A DNA stretch of 64,000 nucleotides from Chlamydiae bacterium RIFCSPLOWO2_12_FULL_45_20 (GCA_001796285.1 MGMD01000002.1:5929-69928); one strand, 5' to 3'. Shown: positions 5,606 to 53,713, counted from the stretch's first letter. Numbers and translations: made by a program. The notes: generated by a model not told the origin, from the sequence alone.

Positions 5606-8548
5606 CTAGTAACTGCGGTTCCACTTCAAGGTGAATTTCCCTTGCTCCTGTCTCTGATCGCTCTGAATTTCGAAGACGAAATTGTGTTTGAGCTCAATTT
5701 CGACACTGATATTTGTGCTGCTGTCTTCTGTGCCCTGTGTGATGGAGACGAGCACCCCTTCAGAGACATATTTCCCCACTTCAAGAGAAACCGTTTCTCC
5801 ATCCACTCCAGGCTCAGCGATCACTCGAAGTCGATCGACTCCCAGAGACTTTCTTGTGCTCTCCATGATATCAGGCCCCGTGCCCGCTAGAGATGCTAGG
5901 GAAGTGGCAATTTGGAGAGCTTGAAAGCCTCCGATTTCTGAAAGATCCTGCCCGAACAAGAGGTATGACAGGATGGAACTTAATGGGAGAGACGGATTGG
6001 ATTGTAGCGTTACCTGTGGGTTGTCGAGAGGGCCAGACAATTTGGCTGTGATTAAAATCCCTTTGGTCTCGGTGGTTCCAGCCAGTTTTAGATGGGGCAT
6101 TTGGTACTCTTTTCCAGAAAAAGAGAGTGCACCTTCCGTCAGCTTAAAACTTCGGCTAGAAAAATTAAACTGTCCTTCGATGAGTGTCAGTTTTCCGTGT
6201 GTTGCAATCGAAGTAAAACTCCCCCCCAAATGAAAATCGCCTTTCCATTCCGATTCGAGGCCCCTCCCGCTGATGTTGACTCGAGGAGCCGAAATATTGA
6301 GATCCAAGAGGAGGGGATAGGGTTCATAGTCTTTGGGAGAAAGCACGATTTCTCGAATCGGGTGGCGATAGGTGACATTCAGGTCGGGAAGTGGTTTTGC
6401 AATGTGGCTCGGAATGGTAAGAGTCGTATCGCTTACTGTGACATCTCCTTTAACCATGGCTTTTAGAGCGTTGCCTTTGATTTGGACCTCCCCATTGGCA
6501 ATCGCCTGCACCAGATCCACTGTGACAAACTGAAAATTGACAAGCTTGCAATCTAATAGAAAAGGAAAGTGCTCCTGAAGCAAGAGATCAATATGCCCCG
6601 TCGCTTCAAAGGTGCCCTGGTTGGGGTCTTGCGCTGAAAGATTGTTTAAGTAGAATCCCTGTTTGTTGGCGACAAATTCGGCCTGAATCGAACCCAATTG
6701 CGTGCCGGTATAGTAATTTTCATAAGAGCCATTTTGGATCTGAATCAATCCTGCAATTTCTGGGCGTACTAAGGAGTTTTTAAATAAAATATCTGCCTTG
6801 AGGTCCCCCTCTAAACGGTGTGGTCCGATGTTCCAATAATCGAGAAAACGCTCGATTCTCCCTTGATAGGTCAGATGCCCATCAGCAGCTTTGGTGTAGA
6901 GGACTTCTTGATGAAAGGGCCAGATGGAAAAGTGGATAGGTAAAGACGCATCGAATGTACAAATGGGGCCGTTTCTGGAAGAGAACTTCCCTTTGAGGGT
7001 CAGTAGGTCTTCCGATAGGCCAGCTTCCACTTTTCCAAGAGAAACAAAGGGTTCCACTTGTTCAATATTCGCAGATAAAGTGCCCGATAAGCGGTTATTT
7101 TGCTCTTTTACGATAACCTCAATGTCTATGGCGCCCAAGATCGCATCATCCAAAGGATTCATGGACAAAATATCTAAGGGAAGGTTTTTCCCGCTGAGAT
7201 GAGCCTCTGTATTACTCCCTCGCCTCGTTATAGAAAAAAGAAGGGTGCCTTGATCTAGAGAGACCTCTGTTTTTGAAAGGATCAAAGCCTCTTGCGACCA
7301 CGCGATGTGAGTGGCGTGTTCTAGGACTAGAGGGAGGTTTAGAACTCTACCAGAAAAGAGCTGAAGGTCCACTGCAAAGGGGTGGCTAAAAGTCCCCAAA
7401 GAGGTCCACTCAAAGGGGTGGAACCAGGTTCCTTTCGCACTCATGCTAAAAGGCCATTCGGTTTCATTTTGCTCCGCTTTGAGCGTACAATGTTCAAGCG
7501 TTAAATCGCTGAAAGAACCCCGAGAAATCGTCATATTCAAAGAGTTTTGAGAACGTCTAAACGGATCGAGAATTTTCCAAAACCCGAAGACCCTCTCTAT
7601 TGTATACGAGTGATACGAGAAATCGGAAAAAAGAGGTTCGATCAGCACGGCTTGGACCCCATTTTCTTCCTCTAAGAAAGCTTTGACTTCTATCTTTCCA
7701 TAAAAGTCAGGAATGTGGAAGGCTTGGATGTTTTCCACTTGTGCATCGATATGCCCCGAAACGAGGAAATCGGAGAGCAGTGTTAAGTCAAAATCAACCT
7801 TTGAAAAGGGACCCGAAACTTTTCCTCGAAGGTTACGATCTTTTACAGTAAAAACGCCTTCTGCTTTGAGAGGCTCGTATGCGTGTAGCCCGACTTGGTA
7901 GTCTGCTACCTGACAGATGAACTCCCCCTGGAATTCTTCCTGTTCTTTTTTTATTTTGATATTCCCCATCAGACGTCCTGAAGCGTTAAAGGGGAGGGTT
8001 GTAAGAATAAGATCATCATTGAGCTGAATGCTCGAGGAAATGAGTTCGAAAGGTTCTTTAAAACTTGCCCTTCCCCTGATATTAAACGAGTCTTTGCTTC
8101 CGCTAAAATGTGCCTCTTTTTTTGCAATATGATAGCGCAAAAAGATGTTCCACCCCTCCAAAGCCCCCCTGGCATAAAATTGTTTTGTGCTCAATCTTAA
8201 ATTTCCCGAAAAATCAAAGGGCTTCTCATCGGATAAAGAGACCTTTTTGGCCACCACACCTTGAAAGGCAAGCTCTTTTTTTATAAGGCGCCAAAGGACA
8301 GGTTTTAAGGTGATGTCTTGGATGGAGAGCTTCAGATCTTGTCCCTCAATCGTTACCCCCTTCAATTCAATGCGACTCGGAAGGGCTCCCTCAATATGCT
8401 CAATATGCACCTGGTAACCCAAAGAAAAAAAGGCATCTGAGATAGCGTTTTTCAGAAAATTTTTTACAAAAGAGCTTTGAAAAATAGCATATATCCCAGC
8501 TAGGATAAACAAGAGGAAAAAAAGAAAAATTCCAAGTTTTTTCATCAT
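5606..8548 (-). CDS. tamB: TamB-like translocation and assembly module protein (DUF490 C-terminus)
   Basis: The 980-aa ORF has an N-terminal anchor MMKKLGIFLFFLLFILAGIYAI, a long beta-rich body and a DUF490-like end ...LEVGKYVSEGVLVSITQG...KFTLKWNRSY. Its start overlaps the stop of the upstream Omp85 gene. Confidence 0.8.
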   Translation of the reverse strand: MMKKLGIFLFFLLFILAGIYAIFQSSFVKNFLKNAISDAFFSLGYQVHIEHIEGALPSRIELKGVTIEGQDLKLSIQDITLKPVLWRLIKKELAFQGVVAKKVSLSDEKPFDFSGNLRLSTKQFYARGALEGWNIFLRYHIAKKEAHFSGSKDSFNIRGRASFKEPFELISSSIQLNDDLILTTLPFNASGRLMGNIKIKKEQEEFQGEFICQVADYQVGLHAYEPLKAEGVFTVKDRNLRGKVSGPFSKVDFDLTLLSDFLVSGHIDAQVENIQAFHIPDFYGKIEVKAFLEEENGVQAVLIEPLFSDFSYHSYTIERVFGFWKILDPFRRSQNSLNMTISRGSFSDLTLEHCTLKAEQNETEWPFSMSAKGTWFHPFEWTSLGTFSHPFAVDLQLFSGRVLNLPLVLEHATHIAWSQEALILSKTEVSLDQGTLLFSITRRGSNTEAHLSGKNLPLDILSMNPLDDAILGAIDIEVIVKEQNNRLSGTLSANIEQVEPFVSLGKVEAGLSEDLLTLKGKFSSRNGPICTFDASLPIHFSIWPFHQEVLYTKAADGHLTYQGRIERFLDYWNIGPHRLEGDLKADILFKNSLVRPEIAGLIQIQNGSYENYYTGTQLGSIQAEFVANKQGFYLNNLSAQDPNQGTFEATGHIDLLLQEHFPFLLDCKLVNFQFVTVDLVQAIANGEVQIKGNALKAMVKGDVTVSDTTLTIPSHIAKPLPDLNVTYRHPIREIVLSPKDYEPYPLLLDLNISAPRVNISGRGLESEWKGDFHLGGSFTSIATHGKLTLIEGQFNFSSRSFKLTEGALSFSGKEYQMPHLKLAGTTETKGILITAKLSGPLDNPQVTLQSNPSLPLSSILSYLLFGQDLSEIGGFQALQIATSLASLAGTGPDIMESTRKSLGVDRLRVIAEPGVDGETVSLEVGKYVSEGVLVSITQGTEDSSTNISVEIELKHNFVFEIQSDQRQEQGKFTLKWNRSY

Positions 8549-10302
8549 CAGTATGCCTGTCCTATCGATGCATAAAGTCTGTATCTATGGTCAACGCCTT
8601 TTCTTCTGTCTAGAGGAAAGCCTACATCAAAACGAATCGGACCAAAGAAAGTAAAATAACGTAATCCGATGCCGAGCGACTTAAACCACTTGGCATCTAC
8701 CGTCGGAAGTTCACGAAAAGTAACCGTGCCAAAGTCTGCAAAAGGGACAAGACCGAAATTGCCGATTCGAAAACGGGTTTCCACGCTTAAAAAAATCGCG
8801 GATCTCCCCCCAAAGGGCCTTTTTTTTGCGTCTAAAGGACTCACCGTTAAGTAACGGTAGCCGCGTAAATCATCTTCAGATCCCCCTAAAAATAAGACGG
8901 GAATCGGAATGTTTTTTTGCCGAGTGCCTGCCACTGAGCCTAGCTGCACCCTCCCAGCAAAAGTAAAGTACTTTTGAACAATAGGAATATAAAATGTCGT
9001 CGTGATCCGCTGTTTGATAAATTGCTGTGAGCTTTGATAGAGCGATTGAAAAAAATGCGGCTGATACACAAGGGTGTATCCCCTCGTTGGATTTAATGGG
9101 TCATCTGCTTGGTTGTATTTGAAAATCATAGGGAGGTCAAAGAAAAGATAGGAACGGTTATTAGCGCTATTGGTTACATTAAAGTGCTCTACTTGCATTC
9201 CCACGGAAAGGTAGCTTTTCGCATCGACTTTATAATCAAAAAAATTAGCCCCTCGGTATAAAATCGAATGATAGGCATAGATGTCTTGTCTTTCAATTTG
9301 CCCAAGAGCGCGGTATGTCTGATCTATCGCCAAGACATCAGGTTTTTTATACACCAGAGTACCGGCTAGATACCGCTTTGACGCCTCCATGTTGATTTGG
9401 ATGCTCTCGCCCATGCCCCGCAAATTTCGGTGAGACCAATTAAATACTCCTCCAGGGCCATCGACCGTTGCATAAAAGGGGCCAAAACTCACTTGCCGGT
9501 GTTTGGCTTCGCTTAAGTGCATTTTTATGGGTAGGCCCCCCTGTTCGTCAAGGGTCTCTTTGTGGGAAATCAAGACAGAGCTAAAAAGATCACTATCTAA
9601 CAGTCTTTTTTGCGTGTTTTTCACATCGATTGTTCTATACAGCTCCCCTTCTTGCCAGGCTACCCGGTCTAAAATAAATGCTGGCTTGACCTTTTTAAGA
9701 CCAAAAATGGACAGCGGCCCAAATTTCGAAAGAGGGCCTTCATCGATACAGCTTGCCGCTTCGACCTTTTTTTCTTGCATATCGACGATTACTTTTCTTT
9801 TTTCTACGTTTGCTAGTGGATAACCGCATTCAGCAAGAGAAGTTAAAAGATTGAGTTCTGCATTGACGATACTGACGGAAAGAGCTGGGCTTCCGATCGG
9901 AAGGCCCAGCGACGCGGGCGTTAATGGGCTGCAGCAGGGGAGTGCTAATGGAGTCTCACATTGCTCTTTGTGATAGACTTCATAGGAGGCGATGGTGTAT
10001 TGGGGACCAGGCCGGATGTACAGAGTGACTTGTGCGAAGTGTTCCTTCCAATCCACGGTATAAGAGATTTTCCCGTCGTAATATCCGTAGGCGCGTAGCA
10101 CTTTTAAAAGGGCTGGAAGATCTCCCTGGACTCGATACCGAATGCCATTGAGAGAAGCGGGGGGCCTATCTTGCAAAATGACTAAATCAGAGGCGTCCAG
10201 CATAGACTTAATCGCTTGTACATTGTCTAGCCCCACAAAATCGACGCGGTAATCGAGACCGTATAGGATAACAGGTAGGAAGAAAATCCACCGAAACTGC
10301 AT
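8548..10302 (-). CDS. tamA: Omp85-family outer-membrane beta-barrel (TamA-like)
   Basis: The 584-aa ORF has a signal peptide, POTRA-like N-terminal repeats, a C-terminal D15/surface-antigen barrel (..LRGYRY.., ..GIGLRYFTFFGPIRFDVGFPL..) and an aromatic terminus ..SIGQAY. It is translationally coupled to tamB. Confidence 0.75.
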   Translation of the reverse strand: MQFRWIFFLPVILYGLDYRVDFVGLDNVQAIKSMLDASDLVILQDRPPASLNGIRYRVQGDLPALLKVLRAYGYYDGKISYTVDWKEHFAQVTLYIRPGPQYTIASYEVYHKEQCETPLALPCCSPLTPASLGLPIGSPALSVSIVNAELNLLTSLAECGYPLANVEKRKVIVDMQEKKVEAASCIDEGPLSKFGPLSIFGLKKVKPAFILDRVAWQEGELYRTIDVKNTQKRLLDSDLFSSVLISHKETLDEQGGLPIKMHLSEAKHRQVSFGPFYATVDGPGGVFNWSHRNLRGMGESIQINMEASKRYLAGTLVYKKPDVLAIDQTYRALGQIERQDIYAYHSILYRGANFFDYKVDAKSYLSVGMQVEHFNVTNSANNRSYLFFDLPMIFKYNQADDPLNPTRGYTLVYQPHFFQSLYQSSQQFIKQRITTTFYIPIVQKYFTFAGRVQLGSVAGTRQKNIPIPVLFLGGSEDDLRGYRYLTVSPLDAKKRPFGGRSAIFLSVETRFRIGNFGLVPFADFGTVTFRELPTVDAKWFKSLGIGLRYFTFFGPIRFDVGFPLDRRKGVDHRYRLYASIGQAY

Positions 10303-48279: not shown

Positions 48280-48912
48280 ATGGAGAATCAATTTCAAGTT
48301 TTAGAGACCTGGACTTTTGAGATTTTAGAGGCTATCAAAAAAGATATTAAACAGGAGCATATGGATGCTCATTTGGAGTTCTATCGCAAGTATTTTGGAA
48401 ACCGTCCGAAAAAAGGTCTTACGACGACTGAAATTTTTAGTGCTTATGCCAAAGAGCTATCTGAAGGCAATGAAGAATTTTCTGCATGGATTGTGAACCG
48501 CTGGGTTTTTAAAAATGGGGAGCTATATGAGCACTTTGTCAATCAGTTGTCATCCATCAATCCAGATTTTGCTTCCATTGAAACCTTGAATTTAGAGGAA
48601 AGTCAGAGGGTATTAGAGGGGGCTGAGGAGTCTTTTGGAGCGATCCCTGTGTTTCTTTTTTCTCTTCTTAATGGGGTCGTCTTCCCCAAGACTGTCCTGA
48701 TGGATCTGGAGAAAAAAGCGGAAATAGCGAGGCAAGCTAGAGACTCTCAGGTCGAGCAAACCCAGGAACAGCAAAGTTTTGAGAAGGTAATCGCATCTCA
48801 ACAGCGAGAGATTACGCGTCTTGAGGCCAAACTTTTAGGGGTGCAAAAGAAGTATACGCGGGACACGGAAGCTCTCAAAAAACACGTCAAAGCACTTCAG
48901 AAACAACAGTAG
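48280..48912 (+). CDS. Hypothetical protein with a C-terminal coiled coil
   Basis: The 210-aa ORF shows good coding character. I recognise no motif. Confidence 0.6.
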   Translation: MENQFQVLETWTFEILEAIKKDIKQEHMDAHLEFYRKYFGNRPKKGLTTTEIFSAYAKELSEGNEEFSAWIVNRWVFKNGELYEHFVNQLSSINPDFASIETLNLEESQRVLEGAEESFGAIPVFLFSLLNGVVFPKTVLMDLEKKAEIARQARDSQVEQTQEQQSFEKVIASQQREITRLEAKLLGVQKKYTRDTEALKKHVKALQKQQ

Positions 48913-48930: not shown

Positions 48931-49404
48931 ATGTTAGAACGCGATGAACTCTTTATGAAGGAGGCTTTGAAGGAGGCGAAAAGAGCTTTTGATGCAGGGG
49001 AAGTCCCTGTGGGAGCTGTTCTTGTGCACCAAAATCGGGTGATTGCAAGAGGCCACAATCAAGTAGAGCTTCTTCAGGATGCTACAGCTCATGCGGAGGT
49101 GCTCTGTCTTTCTGCAGGATCTCAGGCTCTTTCCAATTGGAGGCTTGTAGAAACGACTCTTTACTGTACGTTGGAGCCCTGTCCGATGTGTGCAGGTGCG
49201 CTCCTTTCTGCAAGGGTGACCCGCCTTGTTTGGGGAGCCCCAGATCTCCGTCTGGGTGCGAACGGAAGTTGGGTTGATTTATTGACCATGCGGCATCCTA
49301 TGCATGCAGTTTCGGTTACTTCCCGTGTACTGGAAGCAGAAGCTGCCGATTTGATGCGCACATTTTTTCAAAAACAGCGGCACAAAAGTAGACCTTTTGC
49401 ATGA
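48931..49404 (+). CDS. tadA: tRNA-specific adenosine deaminase
   Basis: It has the HAEVLCL and PCPMCAGAL zinc motifs. Confidence 0.9.
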   Translation: MLERDELFMKEALKEAKRAFDAGEVPVGAVLVHQNRVIARGHNQVELLQDATAHAEVLCLSAGSQALSNWRLVETTLYCTLEPCPMCAGALLSARVTRLVWGAPDLRLGANGSWVDLLTMRHPMHAVSVTSRVLEAEAADLMRTFFQKQRHKSRPFA

Positions 49405-49619
49405 TTCGTATGTTGGATGATTTAATCAGGGGGCAAGAACAAAAACTCTGGGAAACGGCCCGTAGGATCGTTCCCCATATCACGCCTGATGATCTTTTGC
49501 AGCCAAACGATTTTCCTAAGCTCGAGATGAACCCCTATTTTCGACATGAAGAAGGAATTTTGGATGGACTGAGGATGGCCAAAGCGGCGCTCCAAGCTGA
49601 GAAGATGTCTACTTTGTAA
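49401..49619 (+). CDS. Small hypothetical protein coupled to tadA
   Basis: The 72-aa ORF has an ATGA overlap with the tadA stop. Its 3' end overlaps the convergent GT gene by 11 nt. Confidence 0.45.
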   Translation: MIRMLDDLIRGQEQKLWETARRIVPHITPDDLLQPNDFPKLEMNPYFRHEEGILDGLRMAKAALQAEKMSTL

Positions 49620-50295
49620 ACACCCTCTGAGTCCGAATGATGAATTTTCCGTGGTAGCCGTGCCAGTGTAAGATAGCAGCATCGCTTCTTTCTTCAGAGC
49701 GGCGGCTCCAGTTATAAATGGGTGGAAGTTCGTCGATTCTGATGTTGCGCTCACCAATCATGTGGGAAAAGACTTCTTGATCGCCGCGAAATGTTTTATT
49801 TTTAAGATAGCACCATTCTGCCCAACATTGTAGAAGAGGGTGGTTGTTTCGAAAAGCGATGACACCGGAATTGTAGAGTGGGTATTGGGCGAGATAGGGG
49901 TTTTGTTCCAAGGCCATGGCGAAGTGACTTGCGTATTCAAAAAGAGGGGTAAGGGGGGCCTTTACCTCGCAGTCAACGTCGATCCAAAGGGTTTTTGCAA
50001 AAGGTGATTGGAGACATGCCAAAGGTTTTTTGAACCAAGCGTTACGGGCCTCTACGAATTGTAGGCCTGCCTCGCATTCCCATTGCTTTTTCATGTCTGG
50101 AGCGGGGTTTTCGGCAAAATCGACGACTCTTAGAGGAATGAGCTTGCCCCGTTCCCTGCACCATTTCTTTTTTTCATAAGACAGGCCGAGATCGATGAAG
50201 GCAACAGGGAAGGTGTTCCATTGTCGATAGCGTTCCCACCACCACGGAAGAGCCCACTCAAGGGTTTGATCAGACCCAACGATGATTCCATTCAT
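49609..50295 (-). CDS. GT-A fold glycosyltransferase (GT8-like), paralogue A
   Basis: Motifs are LEWALPWWWERY, the DxD-like LWIDVDCEV, YNSGVIAFR, GDQEVFSHMI and ILHWHG. It is a paralogue of 52973..53713. Confidence 0.6.
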   Translation of the reverse strand: MNGIIVGSDQTLEWALPWWWERYRQWNTFPVAFIDLGLSYEKKKWCRERGKLIPLRVVDFAENPAPDMKKQWECEAGLQFVEARNAWFKKPLACLQSPFAKTLWIDVDCEVKAPLTPLFEYASHFAMALEQNPYLAQYPLYNSGVIAFRNNHPLLQCWAEWCYLKNKTFRGDQEVFSHMIGERNIRIDELPPIYNWSRRSEERSDAAILHWHGYHGKFIIRTQRVFTK

Positions 50296-50298
50296 GGG

Positions 50299-52257
50299 TC
50301 AAGCCAGCCACTTATAGCGTAAAATCTTGCTTTGGATGGCCTCAAAAGCGCTTTTTGTAATGTTTGGGCAATCTCGTATGGATAGAATCATGAGGTTTTG
50401 ATTAGCAGATAAAAGGGGGATGAGTCCTGCATCGGTAATGTGCTGTAAGTTTGAAAAGTAAATCGCGTTCAAATTCCTTTGCGTTTTTGCCAACTTTTGT
50501 AAATCTTCATCGCTGAGTTTTGACGCACCTAGCTGTAGAACTCTTAATGAGGGGAGGTTTTGGATCCAGTCCAAGGTCATGTGAGGACAGTCAATGGCTT
50601 TGAGATGGACGAGATGGGGTAGGTTTTCCCAGCCCGCAGAGGAGATATCGTCCAGGCCATCTAAGTAGAGCTTTTCGATGTTTGGGCAGAGTTGGAGGAA
50701 AGAGGCGATTCCTTGATTGGTTATAAGGAGGCATCCGTCCAGAGAAAGGGAGGAGAGGTTTGGGTGTTTTTTGGCTATTTCCAGAAGCATAGCATCTGTC
50801 ATTTTTAAAGAGTTTGTAAAATCAAGATGCATCGAGCACTCTATTTTTTCAGGAGGTATTTCAGAATAATAGGTGTCTAATGAGGCAAAAAACTCTTCTG
50901 TTTTTTTGCGAAGGGAGGTTCCCTCTACAATGCGGTTTACTGTTTCATCAGGATCTTTTTCTAAATGATAGAGGCACTCTTTTTCATCGCTTACGATGTA
51001 TTTCCAGGGGCCTTCTCGGCACCCTTTGGCTGGGGTATCGAAGGGATGGCTAAAAAAAATAGGGGCGTTGGAGGGGTAAAGAAGACTTTTCCCTAAACTT
51101 TGGTGGGGGGTATGGATGTGTAAAAGGTCAAGCAGAGTGGGAAGTAGATCCACTTGAGAGGAAAGGGTGTCGATGGTTCTTGGCCGATCTATCCTTCCTT
51201 CAGCAAGGATCAGCAGTGGAACGTGTATATTGTCTTGGTAAAGATCTCGATTCACTTCAAAATGAGGCCCACGATCTTCGAGTTGCTGCCCGTGATCCCC
51301 GTAAATGAAGAGGATGCTTTTTTTCAGAAGGTCACCATCGGCAAGGGCATCAATGAGGATTTGAAGCGCCTTATCGGTGTAGGCGAAGGTATTGAGAAAT
51401 CCATGTTTTTTTTCTGGGTGAATCCATGGATGGTGATTGGTAATCGTGTAGAGATTGAGGAAAGTGGGGACTTTTTGGGTTTTCAGCCACAAAGCGGCTG
51501 TTGTCATGAGATGTTCGTCATAAATGCCCCAGCTTGTCCCTGGCTTTGCGATGTTTCTTTTTCCTAAAATGGTCTGAAAGCCGTGCTTTTCAAAGAACTC
51601 TGCTTCGTGGTCAAAGGCTGTGGAACCTCCTTGGATAACCGTTGGATAGTAGCCATGTTTTGCCAGTAGGCGGGGCAGCCCAACCAGAGGGAGGTCGGCG
51701 TAATGACCTAAATGCCAGGGCTCATGGGCTGGAGGAACCCCGCATAGAGTGGAGAGGATGGAGCGGTTGGTTAAATTGCCGGTAGCGTGGAAGTTTGTAA
51801 ACAGAAGGCCCCTTTTGGCGAGTCGATCAAAATGGGGGCTTAACGCTTGTTTTGCTCCCAAACAGCCGACATTTTTGGCTCGGAAGGATTCTAAACTAAT
51901 GAAGAGGATGTGCGGTTTATCTTCTGTATGGATGTCAAAAAGCTTCTGGCCTTGGGGGACGGAAATTTGGAATGGAAAGGAGGAAGCTAGGTTTTTTTTT
52001 CTTTTTCTTCGAAAGAGGAGCCAGAGCGGATGGGGCCATTTTGTCACGAGTATGCATGGGATAGAGAACCAGGGAAACATCCAGAGGAGAGGGGCTAGAA
52101 GAAGCAAGAGAGACAATATTTTTTTGCCAGAGCTAAAAAAACTCCATGGGTTTTTTAACAGTTGAAAATGGGACCGTTGGAGTCGAATGCGATACTTGAG
52201 GAATAGAATGGAATCACTCACGCAGTAAAGCGCAATGAAAACAAGGATTCGCTTCAT
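50299..52257 (-). CDS. Membrane-anchored alkaline-phosphatase-superfamily transferase (LtaS/OpgB/EptA fold) fused to C-terminal eukaryote-type cysteine-containing LRRs
   Basis: It has N-terminal TM helices, then PHILFISLESFRAKNVG...FHATGNLTNRSILSTLCG...IYGDHG (PF00884-like). The last ~175 aa are ~25-residue repeats of the form L..L.L.GC..IT..G (..PNLSSLSLDGCLLITNQGIASFLQLCPNIEKLYLDG.., ..LSIRDCPNITKSAF..). Confidence 0.7.
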   Translation of the reverse strand: MKRILVFIALYCVSDSILFLKYRIRLQRSHFQLLKNPWSFFSSGKKILSLLLLLAPLLWMFPWFSIPCILVTKWPHPLWLLFRRKRKKNLASSFPFQISVPQGQKLFDIHTEDKPHILFISLESFRAKNVGCLGAKQALSPHFDRLAKRGLLFTNFHATGNLTNRSILSTLCGVPPAHEPWHLGHYADLPLVGLPRLLAKHGYYPTVIQGGSTAFDHEAEFFEKHGFQTILGKRNIAKPGTSWGIYDEHLMTTAALWLKTQKVPTFLNLYTITNHHPWIHPEKKHGFLNTFAYTDKALQILIDALADGDLLKKSILFIYGDHGQQLEDRGPHFEVNRDLYQDNIHVPLLILAEGRIDRPRTIDTLSSQVDLLPTLLDLLHIHTPHQSLGKSLLYPSNAPIFFSHPFDTPAKGCREGPWKYIVSDEKECLYHLEKDPDETVNRIVEGTSLRKKTEEFFASLDTYYSEIPPEKIECSMHLDFTNSLKMTDAMLLEIAKKHPNLSSLSLDGCLLITNQGIASFLQLCPNIEKLYLDGLDDISSAGWENLPHLVHLKAIDCPHMTLDWIQNLPSLRVLQLGASKLSDEDLQKLAKTQRNLNAIYFSNLQHITDAGLIPLLSANQNLMILSIRDCPNITKSAFEAIQSKILRYKWLA

Positions 52258-52961
52258 CGGTTTTTATTGGGTTGGTAGAGCCAGTAGTATTTAAAGGGAT
52301 CAGCTTTTAATGTTTCAAAAGCTCGGATATTGCCTGATTGGACGAGTTTCCAATTATGAAAGAGGCGGTCGTAGGCGATAGGGGAACGGTACGTAGCCCA
52401 ATATAGCGGAATGGATGCAGGCACTGGCTTTTTGACATTCCCTGTTGGGTCAAGGGTATGCGTCGTTGCAGCACAGGATTCTCGAAAAAAAAGATGCCCA
52501 TCGGGTTGGAGCCACAGATGAAGTTTTTGGATGAGGGATTGGACCTCGCTATCTTCAAGATACATGAAAACCCAACTGATGAAGATAAGATCAAAAGACT
52601 TTTCCTCAAAAGCCGCATCCATCACATCTGAGAGGAGCCATTCAATATTGGTACATTCTTTGGCTCTTTTTTTGCTCTCTTCAATAAATTGTGGACACAC
52701 GTCCAAAGATACAACCTTTTTGGCACAGCACGCGAATTCCTGAGTAAAGCGACCGATTCCGGCACCGAGATCTAAGATGACTTTGTGTTTTAAAGGGGGC
52801 AGTAAGCTTACAATTTCAGGTCGTTCTAAGGCGTCGAGCTCTTGCGCTTCAGCGTTTAAAAACATTGAATAAAGTTGGGCCGGCTTGGTTTTCCAGTAAT
52901 TTTTTGCTTGCTCTCGTCCCATGGTAAACCTATATTTTAAAAAATGTACAGAGTCCAGCAT
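52254..52961 (-). CDS. Class I SAM methyltransferase resembling the plant/nematode phosphoethanolamine N-methyltransferase domain
   Basis: Motifs are KNYW..., ERPEIVSLLPPLKHKVILDLGAGIGRFTQEFA, FDLIFISWVFMYLEDSEV, WLQPDGHLFFRESC and ...YYWLYQ. An alternative start is ATG 52922. A 4-nt overlap links it to the downstream gene. Confidence 0.7.
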   Translation of the reverse strand: MLDSVHFLKYRFTMGREQAKNYWKTKPAQLYSMFLNAEAQELDALERPEIVSLLPPLKHKVILDLGAGIGRFTQEFACCAKKVVSLDVCPQFIEESKKRAKECTNIEWLLSDVMDAAFEEKSFDLIFISWVFMYLEDSEVQSLIQKLHLWLQPDGHLFFRESCAATTHTLDPTGNVKKPVPASIPLYWATYRSPIAYDRLFHNWKLVQSGNIRAFETLKADPFKYYWLYQPNKNR

Positions 52962-52972
52962 AAGATAGCAAA

Positions 52973-53713
52973 ATGACAGGAAAGGATCGAGGAGTATTTG
53001 TCGCTACAGATGAGGTGCTTGAATGGCTTCTTCCTTGGTGGTGGGGGAACTATTCTGAAACGAATAAGCTGCCTGTGTGTTTTGGGGATTTTGGCATGTC
53101 GGATCGCGCGAGAAGATGGTGCCAGGCCAGAGGTCTTTATGTACTTATATCGTTAGAGCACCTTCGAATGGCAGACAAAGAGCGAATAGGCTCCGCTCGA
53201 TTGCAAGAGTGGGAAAAGAACTTAAGTCCTTTTTGGGGTTCTAGGGGGGCTTGGTTTAAAAAGCCTTTTGGGATGCTCGCGAGTCCTTTTGAGGAGACTC
53301 TTTGGATGGATCTTGACTGTGAAGTCATGGGCGCGATTGAGCCGGTGTTTGAGCACTTAAAATCCTCTTTTTGCTTGATGAAACTGAGAGAAGAGGGGAA
53401 GAAGGTGCTTTATAATAGTGGAGTGGTCGTATTTCGAAAGGGCTCTCCAGTGCTTCCAGTCTATGCGGACTATGCGATGCGTTACAACCATAAATTTTTG
53501 GGTGATCAAGACGCTTTATCAGAGCTTATTTATAAAAAGAAGTTTCAGGTAGACTCTTTGCCGGATATTTATAACTGGCAGATGTGTCGAGGATTGAACA
53601 TCGCTGCGAAAATTCTCCATTGGACGGCAGGTTGGGGAAAGGAATATATTCGGAGGTATGGAGGGCTTCGGCACCGCCTAGCCTGCTCCCTGCATCCAGG
53701 AATGCGCGTATGA
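52973..53713 (+). CDS. GT-A fold glycosyltransferase (GT8-like), paralogue B
   Basis: Motifs are LEWLLPWWWGNY, LWMDLDCEV, YNSGVVVFR, GDQDALSELI and ILHWTAGWGK. Confidence 0.6.
   Translation: MTGKDRGVFVATDEVLEWLLPWWWGNYSETNKLPVCFGDFGMSDRARRWCQARGLYVLISLEHLRMADKERIGSARLQEWEKNLSPFWGSRGAWFKKPFGMLASPFEETLWMDLDCEVMGAIEPVFEHLKSSFCLMKLREEGKKVLYNSGVVVFRKGSPVLPVYADYAMRYNHKFLGDQDALSELIYKKKFQVDSLPDIYNWQMCRGLNIAAKILHWTAGWGKEYIRRYGGLRHRLACSLHPGMRV

Follow-up and report, generated by a model that had tools for sequence, protein, structure and literature searches.

What brings together a gene for a sulfatase-like membrane protein, a gene for a methyltransferase with relatives in plants and nematodes and two glycosyltransferase-like genes, all lying side by side in a chlamydial genome? 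The question is raised by a cluster of four open reading frames (ORFs) at positions 49,609 to 53,713 of a stretch of 64,000 nucleotides from Chlamydiae bacterium RIFCSPLOWO2_12_FULL_45_20 (GCA_001796285.1, MGMD01000002.1:5929-69928), which was analyzed at its full length and is referred to as the window. An earlier note, made from the DNA alone, had proposed a pathway which glycosylates an envelope molecule and decorates it with a phospho-headgroup. The novelty of the cluster is a putative transferase of the LtaS class which is fused to leucine-rich repeats (LRR) and genetically coupled to a methyltransferase of the PEAMT (phosphoethanolamine N-methyltransferase) type and to GT8-like transferases. 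The explanation that we tentatively prefer, with a likelihood a little short of even, is a chlamydial envelope-modification module centered on a membrane-anchored enzyme of the LtaS/OpgB/EptA kind that transfers phospho-headgroups.

Three of the four genes form one unit on the minus strand. MT (52254..52922, 222 amino acids, aa) encodes a putative single-domain homolog of the MT1-type phosphoethanolamine N-methyltransferases, Sulf-LRR (50299..52257, 652 aa) a protein with predicted membrane helices, a domain of the LtaS/OpgB class and an LRR, and GTa, the third gene of the unit (49609..50295, 228 aa), a candidate GT8-like retaining GT-A glycosyltransferase. The divergent gene GTb (52973..53713, plus strand, 246 aa) encodes a paralog of GTa. 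The stop codon of MT and the start codon of Sulf-LRR overlap by 4 nt, and a gap of 3 nt separates the Sulf-LRR stop from the GTa start; the ORF list confirmed all four ORFs, their coordinates and both spacings as previously described. Sulf-LRR is probably translationally coupled to the upstream MT gene. The longest MT ORF spans 52254..52961 on the minus strand (235 aa), and the public gene calls start at M14 (52922). The GTb start is therefore 11 nt away from the longest MT ORF and 50 nt from the called start, in agreement with the postulated distance of at most 50 nt. The A+T-rich divergent spacer of 50 nt (52923..52972) presumably harbors the promoters of both transcription units; a consensus scan found no sigma-70-like site in it, so that this role is assigned from its position only. 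Within the three-gene unit the same type of scan detected no promoter- or terminator-like signals above background.

Sulf-LRR matches the Pfam family PF00884 with the full profile (1-301, E 2.3e-45) and, weakly, also LRR families. The AlphaFold2 (AF2) model (pLDDT 88) predicts N-terminal helices at residues 2-22 and 37-60 and two short ones at 62-70 and 77-88 (all approximate); the catalytic domain covers residues 113-470 and the C-terminal FBXL-like LRR residues 477-651, likewise approximately. The best sequence match in the PDB is 3lxq, VP1736 of Vibrio (E 3e-24), with LtaP and LtaS ranking next. These proteins also lead the structural comparison with Foldseek, in which 3lxq, 4uop (LtaP), 4uoo/4uor, and 2w5q (LtaS) reached target TM-scores (TMt) of 0.67-0.75, as compared to 0.55-0.64 for true sulfatases; the best hits to 3lxq, LtaP, and LtaS stood at 0.72-0.75. 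Residues 487-640 of the LRR match human FBXL2 (6o60, residues 119-281) at 2e-14, and FBXL17 is matched as well. No F-box was found by Pfam in front of the repeats, and it is the LRR part alone that resembles FBXL proteins.

Among 34 members of the Sulf family, E123, D321, and H322 never vary, and T163 is conserved in at least 90%. We take these four residues to be the counterparts of the Mn site of LtaS (E255/T300/D475/H476). At the position of the sulfatase motif C/S-x-P-x-R, Sulf-LRR reads L-T-N-R-S-I, and distant homologs show T-S-R-A or T-Y-R-A. The earlier note had described the protein as an LtaS-fold transferase fused to an LRR, and PF00884, the Thr nucleophile, the fold of 3lxq, LtaP, and LtaS and the FBXL-like repeats bear this out. 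The possibility that the PF00884 domain belongs to a true sulfatase was rejected, as the formylglycine motif is missing, the nucleophile is a Thr and the fold is nearer to LtaS and LtaP. To judge from sequence and model, Sulf-LRR appears to be a membrane-anchored homolog of the LtaS-type phospho-headgroup transferases, with the LtaS fold, its set of metal ligands and nucleophile and an LRR of the protein-binding type.

Within this class Sulf-LRR stands apart. The NCBIfam equivalog models of LtaS, OpgB, OpgE/EptB, and YejM gave only 12-49 bits at cut-offs of 493-970, and these scores far below the cut-offs define Sulf-LRR as a separate subfamily. This subfamily is almost confined to Chlamydiota: beyond approximately 90 close members the similarity falls off abruptly, and the next proteins are LtaS/MdoB-like ones from other phyla. 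The long homologs of the family have about four hydrophobic segments. The NCBIfam comparison also revealed a resemblance of the C-terminal subdomain to choline sulfatase and to ester hydrolases of the PehA type. Outside the Chlamydiae, LtaS/MdoB-like domains are found fused to tetratricopeptide repeats (TPR; P0237, P0252, and P0255), which parallels the LRR fusion and suggests the recognition of a partner or an acceptor as a recurring theme.

The second question concerns the methyltransferase. In Pfam the 235-aa form of MT matches generic class I methyltransferase domains, including UbiE and RrnaAD. A sequence search of the PDB was far more specific: the MT1 domains of plant PEAMT from Arabidopsis (5wp5/5wp4) were matched with E 1e-39 and 139 bits and nematode PMT-1 with 2e-32 (4krg, 115 bits) and 1e-28, followed at a distance by the next entry with 1e-13 (54 bits) and by the Plasmodium PMT with about 1e-10. 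UbiE reached about 32-42 bits and rRNA methyltransferases about 28-38 bits, and this ranking ruled out an identity of MT as UbiE/UbiG or rRNA methyltransferase. The best bacterial match in NCBIfam is NodS with 63 bits. MT is approximately 40-41% identical to plant PEAMT MT1 and PMT-1 over 150 aa, approximately 41-44% to eukaryotic MT1 domains in general, and approximately 41% to the MT1 of Arabidopsis as compared to 25% to its MT2. In a neighbor-joining tree MT groups with the plant, nematode and other MT1-type enzymes, apart from MT2 and the tandem partner methyltransferases, with a support of less than 50% at the deep nodes; it lies outside the clades of UbiE/UbiG and rRNA methyltransferases. 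The motif match to the plant and nematode enzymes postulated earlier is thus specific, and MT is probably a close single-domain relative of PEAMT MT1 and PMT-1.

PEAMT MT1 and PMT-1 catalyze the first methylation of phosphoethanolamine to phospho-monomethylethanolamine (PMC10269165, PMC8353235), and in HcPMT1 the residues Trp14, Met26, Met27, and Trp123 narrow the phosphobase site and limit the enzyme to this step (PMC10269165). After correction of a numbering offset of six residues, W14/M26/M27/W123 of HcPMT1 align with W10/M20/F21/W117 of MT, three of the four being identical and one a conservative exchange. The family conserves FW, M20, ERPE, the GxGxG loop, FRESC, and YR with a downstream Tyr; W117 is less constant, being present in about 14 of the 23 members. 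From such a pocket one would expect one methylation, with phospho-monomethylethanolamine as the product, and not the formation of phosphocholine. Neither a signal peptide nor a membrane segment was found in the MT sequence. In a word-based search with MT, eukaryotes were the sole outgroups, and a scan of the genome collection (without the window's own genome) with the single MT sequence gave no match; scans based on alignments did find homologs. A transfer of the gene from eukaryotes to Chlamydiae was considered but could not be upheld, since the profile scan finds relatives in many bacterial phyla and the tree does not resolve its backbone.

The two remaining proteins were confirmed as GT-A glycosyltransferases by profile and fold searches, even though Pfam fails at its threshold: neither GTa nor GTb matches PF01501, and five of 30 family members do so weakly (best E 6e-4). 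The two paralogs share 40% identity (E 5e-55). With the AF2 model of GTa (pLDDT 94.9), Foldseek retrieved glycogenin, LARGE1, LgtC, and the GT8-like domain of UGGT with a probability of 1.0 and query TM-scores (TMq) of 0.70-0.76. The family profile matches glycogenin in the PDB with E of about 0.004 and brings the DxD, NSGV, and GDQ motifs into register. Invariant in an alignment of 30 members are D106-x-D108, N142 and G144 of Y-N-S-G-V, D172 of G-D-Q, and H210, and GTb retains the DxD, NSGV, GDQ, and H motifs. At the level of fold and motifs, GTa and GTb can therefore be regarded as probable GT8-like retaining GT-A transferases. Neither carries a signal peptide or membrane segment, which suggests a cytoplasmic site of action for both. 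At least 628 proteins belong to their family; almost all stem from metagenome bins of Chlamydiae, and every one is listed as hypothetical and lacks Pfam domains.

Are the genes linked beyond this one genome? The profile scan comprised one genome per species with loci of 12-16 kb (numbered L below), adjacencies were counted by pattern-based scans, and the related genomes are all metagenome bins. The cluster occupies an island of variable content whose place in chlamydial genomes is conserved; this slot is bordered by rhomboid-rpmE-prfA-prmC-ffh on one side and tadA-rpsO-pnp on the other; the species of the window keeps only the tadA side. The constant element of the island is the Sulf-LRR gene, detected in 79 loci, almost all of Chlamydiota and including bins of Parachlamydiales, Simkaniaceae, and Rhabdochlamydiaceae. 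In 14 of these 79 loci the gene adjoins MT, in various arrangements. MT precedes Sulf with overlapping codons in the window (4 nt), in L005 (13 nt) and in a JGI contig (8 nt); the order is reversed in L006, again with an overlap of 4 nt; a single glycosyltransferase gene parts the two in L009 and L011; and seven loci (L018, L030-L032, L036, L037, and L081) show a divergent orientation. Seen from the methyltransferase, a Sulf gene adjoins about 10 of 26 chlamydial MT loci, mainly those with copies at least 41% identical to the MT of the window.

The second conserved pair consists of Sulf and a GT8-like gene, which follows at a distance of a few nt up to about 250 nt, both in the window and in L009, L010, L012, L017, L029, and L082, and this at Sulf identities down to about 31-36% (L029 and L082). 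The pairwise linkages of MT with Sulf and of Sulf with the GT8-like gene are thus well supported. The co-conservation expected for the cluster holds for these two pairs; the full set of four genes is confined to close relatives. The remaining content of the islands is highly variable (L009, L010, L011, L012, L015, and L016), with Glyco_transf_7C/GT2-like genes and unannotated genes of 230-620 aa; islands may also hold a second sulfatase-fold gene in tandem and a second MT1-like gene. The flanks are indeed housekeeping genes, a tadA-type deaminase (PF00383) and a dienelactone hydrolase (PF01738), as had been noted, but this description understates a location within a variable island rich in glycosyltransferases. 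Near some islands (within the set L009-L012, L015, and L016) a GT90 gene is found beside a gene resembling beta-helix autotransporters. An EamA-family transporter gene adjoins an MT1-like gene in one chlamydial and one cyanobacterial locus (L105:6663-7610 and L110:4193-5191), which may be a coincidence or point to a transporter of the substrate or of S-adenosylmethionine (SAM).

Outside the Chlamydiae the profile scan revealed relatives of MT at 33-40% identity in Dehalococcoidia and other Chloroflexota, Binatia, Cyanobacteria, Desulfobacterales, and Parabeggiatoa. There the MT1-like gene clusters with that of a second methyltransferase, for which plant PEAMT is likewise the nearest solved structure, and with genes for a nucleoside triphosphate (NTP) transferase, a PssA/Pcs-like CDP-alcohol phosphatidyltransferase and a homolog of CobD (threonine-phosphate decarboxylase). 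Such clusters are found in a contig of Dehalococcoidia (CAJWXP010000034.1, L112:4166-8574) and also in L115, L103, L124, L114, L133, and L108. They would be suited to lead from phosphoserine via phosphoethanolamine and methylated phosphobases to a CDP-activated headgroup and finally to a phospholipid. These clusters, which appear to belong to a CDP-choline/phosphatidylcholine (PC) pathway, support a soluble phosphoethanolamine as the substrate of the MT family. A complete route to PC by phosphobase methylation is possible in Dehalococcoidia, Binatia, and Cyanobacteria on the basis of these gene sets, and a literature search found no description of such a route in these bacteria. In Chlamydiae, MT is coupled to a different partner than in the other phyla.

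Which genes of known headgroup pathways accompany the cluster? Leaving aside the cluster and its five annotated neighbors, the window has 42 ORFs, and the scan covered 30 of them. No LicA, LicC, or LicD of the Lic-1 type was found in the cluster or in these 30 ORFs, which is in line with the earlier statement that the pathway differs from the lic1-type route, and the 30 ORFs likewise contained no choline kinase and no PssA/Psd. Four bacterial routes to phosphocholine were known according to a survey of 2023, and the pathway that provides the donor for PptA was unidentified; PptA transfers phosphoethanolamine or phosphocholine to pilin, and a methylation after the transfer was raised only as a possibility (PMC10434233). 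The earlier note had known of no described equivalent of the cluster in Chlamydiae; our literature search, whose coverage lay outside the subscription journals, found none either.

Taken together, the envelope-modification module could operate as follows. The GT8 enzymes would synthesize or elongate a glycan at the cytoplasmic side of the membrane, most simply the core of the lipooligosaccharide (LOS), as do GT8 enzymes of LOS synthesis like LgtC; LgtC-type GT8 enzymes extend the LOS core in Neisseria. Sulf-LRR would take a phospho-alcohol headgroup from a membrane phospholipid via a covalent intermediate at Thr163 and place it on an envelope acceptor, possibly a protein as in the case of PptA and pilin, and the LRR would select this acceptor or a partner protein. 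MT would N-methylate phosphoethanolamine, probably once in view of the constrained pocket, and in the lineages that carry MT the transferred group would be a methylated phosphoethanolamine instead of plain phosphoethanolamine or glycerophosphate. The earlier interpretation is supported in part, namely in the protein families and the pairwise linkage; a single pathway of all four genes and a phospho-headgroup on a glycan would go beyond this, and for the headgroup the pocket predicts a monomethyl product and not phosphocholine. In a further step one could assume that MT and Sulf-LRR constitute a new bacterial route by which glycans or proteins of the envelope receive N-methylated phosphoethanolamine decorations (up to phosphocholine). 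This route would not depend on Lic-1, Pcs, or PmtA; a PEAMT-type enzyme would supply or modify the headgroup, and an LRR-guided enzyme of the alkaline phosphatase superfamily would install it. We consider this stronger version rather unlikely.

Several observations weigh against the envelope-modification module. Its weak point is the additional step needed to bring a cytoplasmic methylated phosphobase to a lipid donor or to the acceptor: MT carries no export signal, while extracytoplasmic action is the rule for domains of the LtaS class. The 30 window ORFs scanned also yielded no cytidylyltransferase, LicD, CDP-alcohol phosphatidyltransferase, or phospholipid N-methyltransferase. The topology of Sulf-LRR is ambiguous, too, with a KR-rich loop at residues 21-46 and the sequence RRKRKK after the last hydrophobic segment, so that a periplasmic catalytic domain is not clearly indicated. 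In its scores the protein is nearer to LtaS and OpgB, which are glycerophosphate donors, than to the phosphoethanolamine donors EptA and EptB. The GT8-like family is very large and encoded mostly elsewhere than in the cluster. Moreover, MT is absent from 65 of the 79 Sulf-LRR loci, and about 16 chlamydial MT copies of greater divergence are solitary; they are surrounded by unrelated housekeeping genes (NDH-2, ComEC, thioredoxin reductase, and the CCA-adding enzyme) which give no clue to a pathway. The coupling of MT and Sulf is consequently restricted to certain lineages, and it could in part be inherited synteny.

Such a scattered distribution would also be expected if the genes merely shared an envelope and lipid island and had separate functions, an explanation which is less likely than the module. 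MT would then feed phospholipid synthesis by converting phosphoethanolamine, perhaps derived from the host, to phospho-N-methylethanolamine and further to N-methyl-phosphatidylethanolamine or PC; Sulf-LRR would independently modify LOS or periplasmic glucans with glycerophosphate or phosphoethanolamine; and the GT8-like proteins would be ordinary LOS or glycan transferases. The many solitary chlamydial MT copies, the majority of Sulf-LRR loci without MT and the highly variable island content are in favor of this division, as is the linkage of the non-chlamydial MT1-like gene to CDP-alcohol phosphatidyltransferase and NTP-transferase genes and not to sulfatase-fold genes. It does not account well for the adjacency of MT and Sulf, which survives changes of order and orientation and shows codon overlaps in both orders, so that inherited synteny alone is not an easy explanation, and no downstream genes of the Kennedy type were found beside any chlamydial MT copy or in the window ORFs scanned. 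A direct functional connection of both proteins would be given if the LtaS-fold domain were a hydrolase of the phosphodiesterase or phospholipase C kind, which frees phosphoethanolamine or another phospho-alcohol for MT from host or bacterial lipids or glycerophosphodiesters and is tethered to a partner by its LRR. The covalent Thr-phosphoryl intermediate of LtaS-class enzymes can be resolved by water, the C-terminal subdomain resembles choline sulfatase and PehA-type ester hydrolases, and MT would obtain the substrate source that the envelope-modification module does not provide. The product, however, would be freed outside the cytoplasm without a transporter encoded in the cluster, the fold is nearest to transferases, and the recurrent GT8-like neighbor would have no explanation; we therefore assign only a small probability to such a salvage function.

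Similarly improbable is a role of the proteins as effectors directed at the host, with Sulf-LRR inserted into the inclusion or host membrane by hairpin-like segments, its catalytic and LRR domains facing the host cytosol, and with MT and the glycogenin-like transferases also acting on host molecules. The eukaryotic resemblance of all three protein types might suggest it, i.e., the similarity of the LRR to FBXL2 and FBXL17, the identity of MT to eukaryotic MT1 domains and the proximity of the GT8 fold to eukaryotic glycogenin, and so might the positive charges on both sides of the hydrophobic segments and their even number in the long homologs, which fits termini on the same side. On the other hand, the N-terminal helix is hydrophobic, a multi-helix anchor combined with the LtaS fold is the standard architecture of bacterial inner-membrane enzymes, an F-box is lacking, the MT family is also widespread in free-living bacteria, and the genomic context is one of LOS-type and glycan-type transferases. 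A trivial annotation as true sulfatase and UbiE- or rRNA-type methyltransferase, unrelated to headgroup chemistry, could invoke the Pfam name 'Sulfatase' of PF00884 and the generic families UbiE and RrnaAD that match MT. It is effectively refuted by the Thr nucleophile without a C/S-x-P-x-R motif, by the fold nearer to LtaS and by the 139 bits of the PEAMT MT1 match, far above the scores of the UbiE and rRNA enzymes.

The surface chemistry of environmental Chlamydiae is largely unknown, and phospho-form decorations such as phosphoethanolamine, glycerophosphate, and phosphocholine govern envelope charge, resistance to antimicrobial peptides and host mimicry. The conserved pairing of MT with an enzyme of the LtaS class is a concrete candidate route for such decorations, and the LRR fusion suggests a choice of the acceptor. 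For three families which are widespread in environmental Chlamydiae and uncharacterized in the sources searched, the assignments made here represent the first functional handles. If the MT and Sulf-LRR route proved true, it would be the long-missing genetic link for phosphocholine modification of the PptA type.

With regard to the surroundings, the window sequence recurs unchanged in contig MGMA01000004.1 (assembly GCA_001796235.1), and the cluster is present at 99.6-99.8% identity in three other assemblies; GTb is conserved at 98-100% in three other assemblies of the same species. An apparent fusion of GTb and the dienelactone hydrolase of 500 aa (L002:4355-5857, GCA_036784645.1) turned out to be an artifact, caused by ten N bases over the GTb stop codon. 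An ORF of 72 aa (49401..49619, plus strand) without Pfam family begins within the last 4 nt of tadA and shares 11 nt with the 3' end of GTa; the gene calls of L005, L010, L011, and L012 have an ORF of 70-129 aa at this place, too. Between rpsO and tadA a protein of 210 aa is encoded (48280..48912, plus strand), which also has no Pfam family and is syntenic in every chlamydial locus examined (209-216 aa). The plus-strand GC skew is strongly positive (0.17-0.28) over 49500..53500 in comparison with the flanks, which fits the coding of most of the cluster on the minus strand. Further genes of the window encode an LptF/LptG permease (37524..39766), an Omp85/BamA-like protein (8548..10302), and two tandem members of the Legionella_OMP family (58465..60820). 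They represent the standard apparatus for the export of lipopolysaccharide (LPS) or LOS and for outer-membrane assembly, and LptF/LptG implies that the organism makes and exports LPS/LOS.

How does the cluster compare to known systems? Closest to Sulf-LRR in sequence and fold are LtaS/LtaP, VP1736, and OpgB (MdoB), with which it shares PF00884, the Thr nucleophile, the E/D/H metal site, and a predicted N-terminal membrane anchor. OpgB and OpgE draw their headgroups from membrane phospholipids (PMC3818809). Instead of five N-terminal helices, two to three are predicted for Sulf-LRR in this lineage; its C-terminal FBXL-like LRR is present in none of the characterized members, and its gene adjoins that of a phosphoethanolamine-type methyltransferase. 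PptA and the EptA/EptB/EptC/OpgE enzymes belong to the same superfamily and follow the same logic: anchored in the membrane, they attach phosphoethanolamine or phosphocholine to proteins or glycans of the envelope. They form another subfamily, however, and Sulf-LRR matches the EptB and MCR models only marginally (E 0.04-0.08); for PptA-type systems, neither a genetic link to a PEAMT-type methyltransferase nor a fusion to an LRR has been reported.

MT shares the SAM, FW, M-x-L, ERPE, FRESC, and YR..Y motifs with plant PEAMT and nematode PMT-1. Unlike these di-domain enzymes of about 450-490 aa, it is a bacterial single-domain protein of 222 aa with Phe instead of Met at position 21, Trp117 is not kept across the whole chlamydial family, and the chlamydial gene is not linked to genes of the Kennedy pathway. 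The GT8 enzymes glycogenin, LgtC, and the xylosyltransferase domain of LARGE1 have the GT-A fold and the DxD, NSG(V), and GDQ motifs in common with GTa, which is only 13-17% identical to them, shorter (228 aa), below the threshold of PF01501, and part of a large chlamydial family without annotation in the databases searched. With the Lic-1 system (LicA/B/C/D), finally, the cluster possibly shares the end result, a decoration of the phosphocholine type on surface glycans. The means would be different: Lic-1 relies on choline uptake, CDP-choline, and LicD, whereas the proteins described here point to the methylation of a phosphobase and to a transferase of the alkaline phosphatase superfamily.

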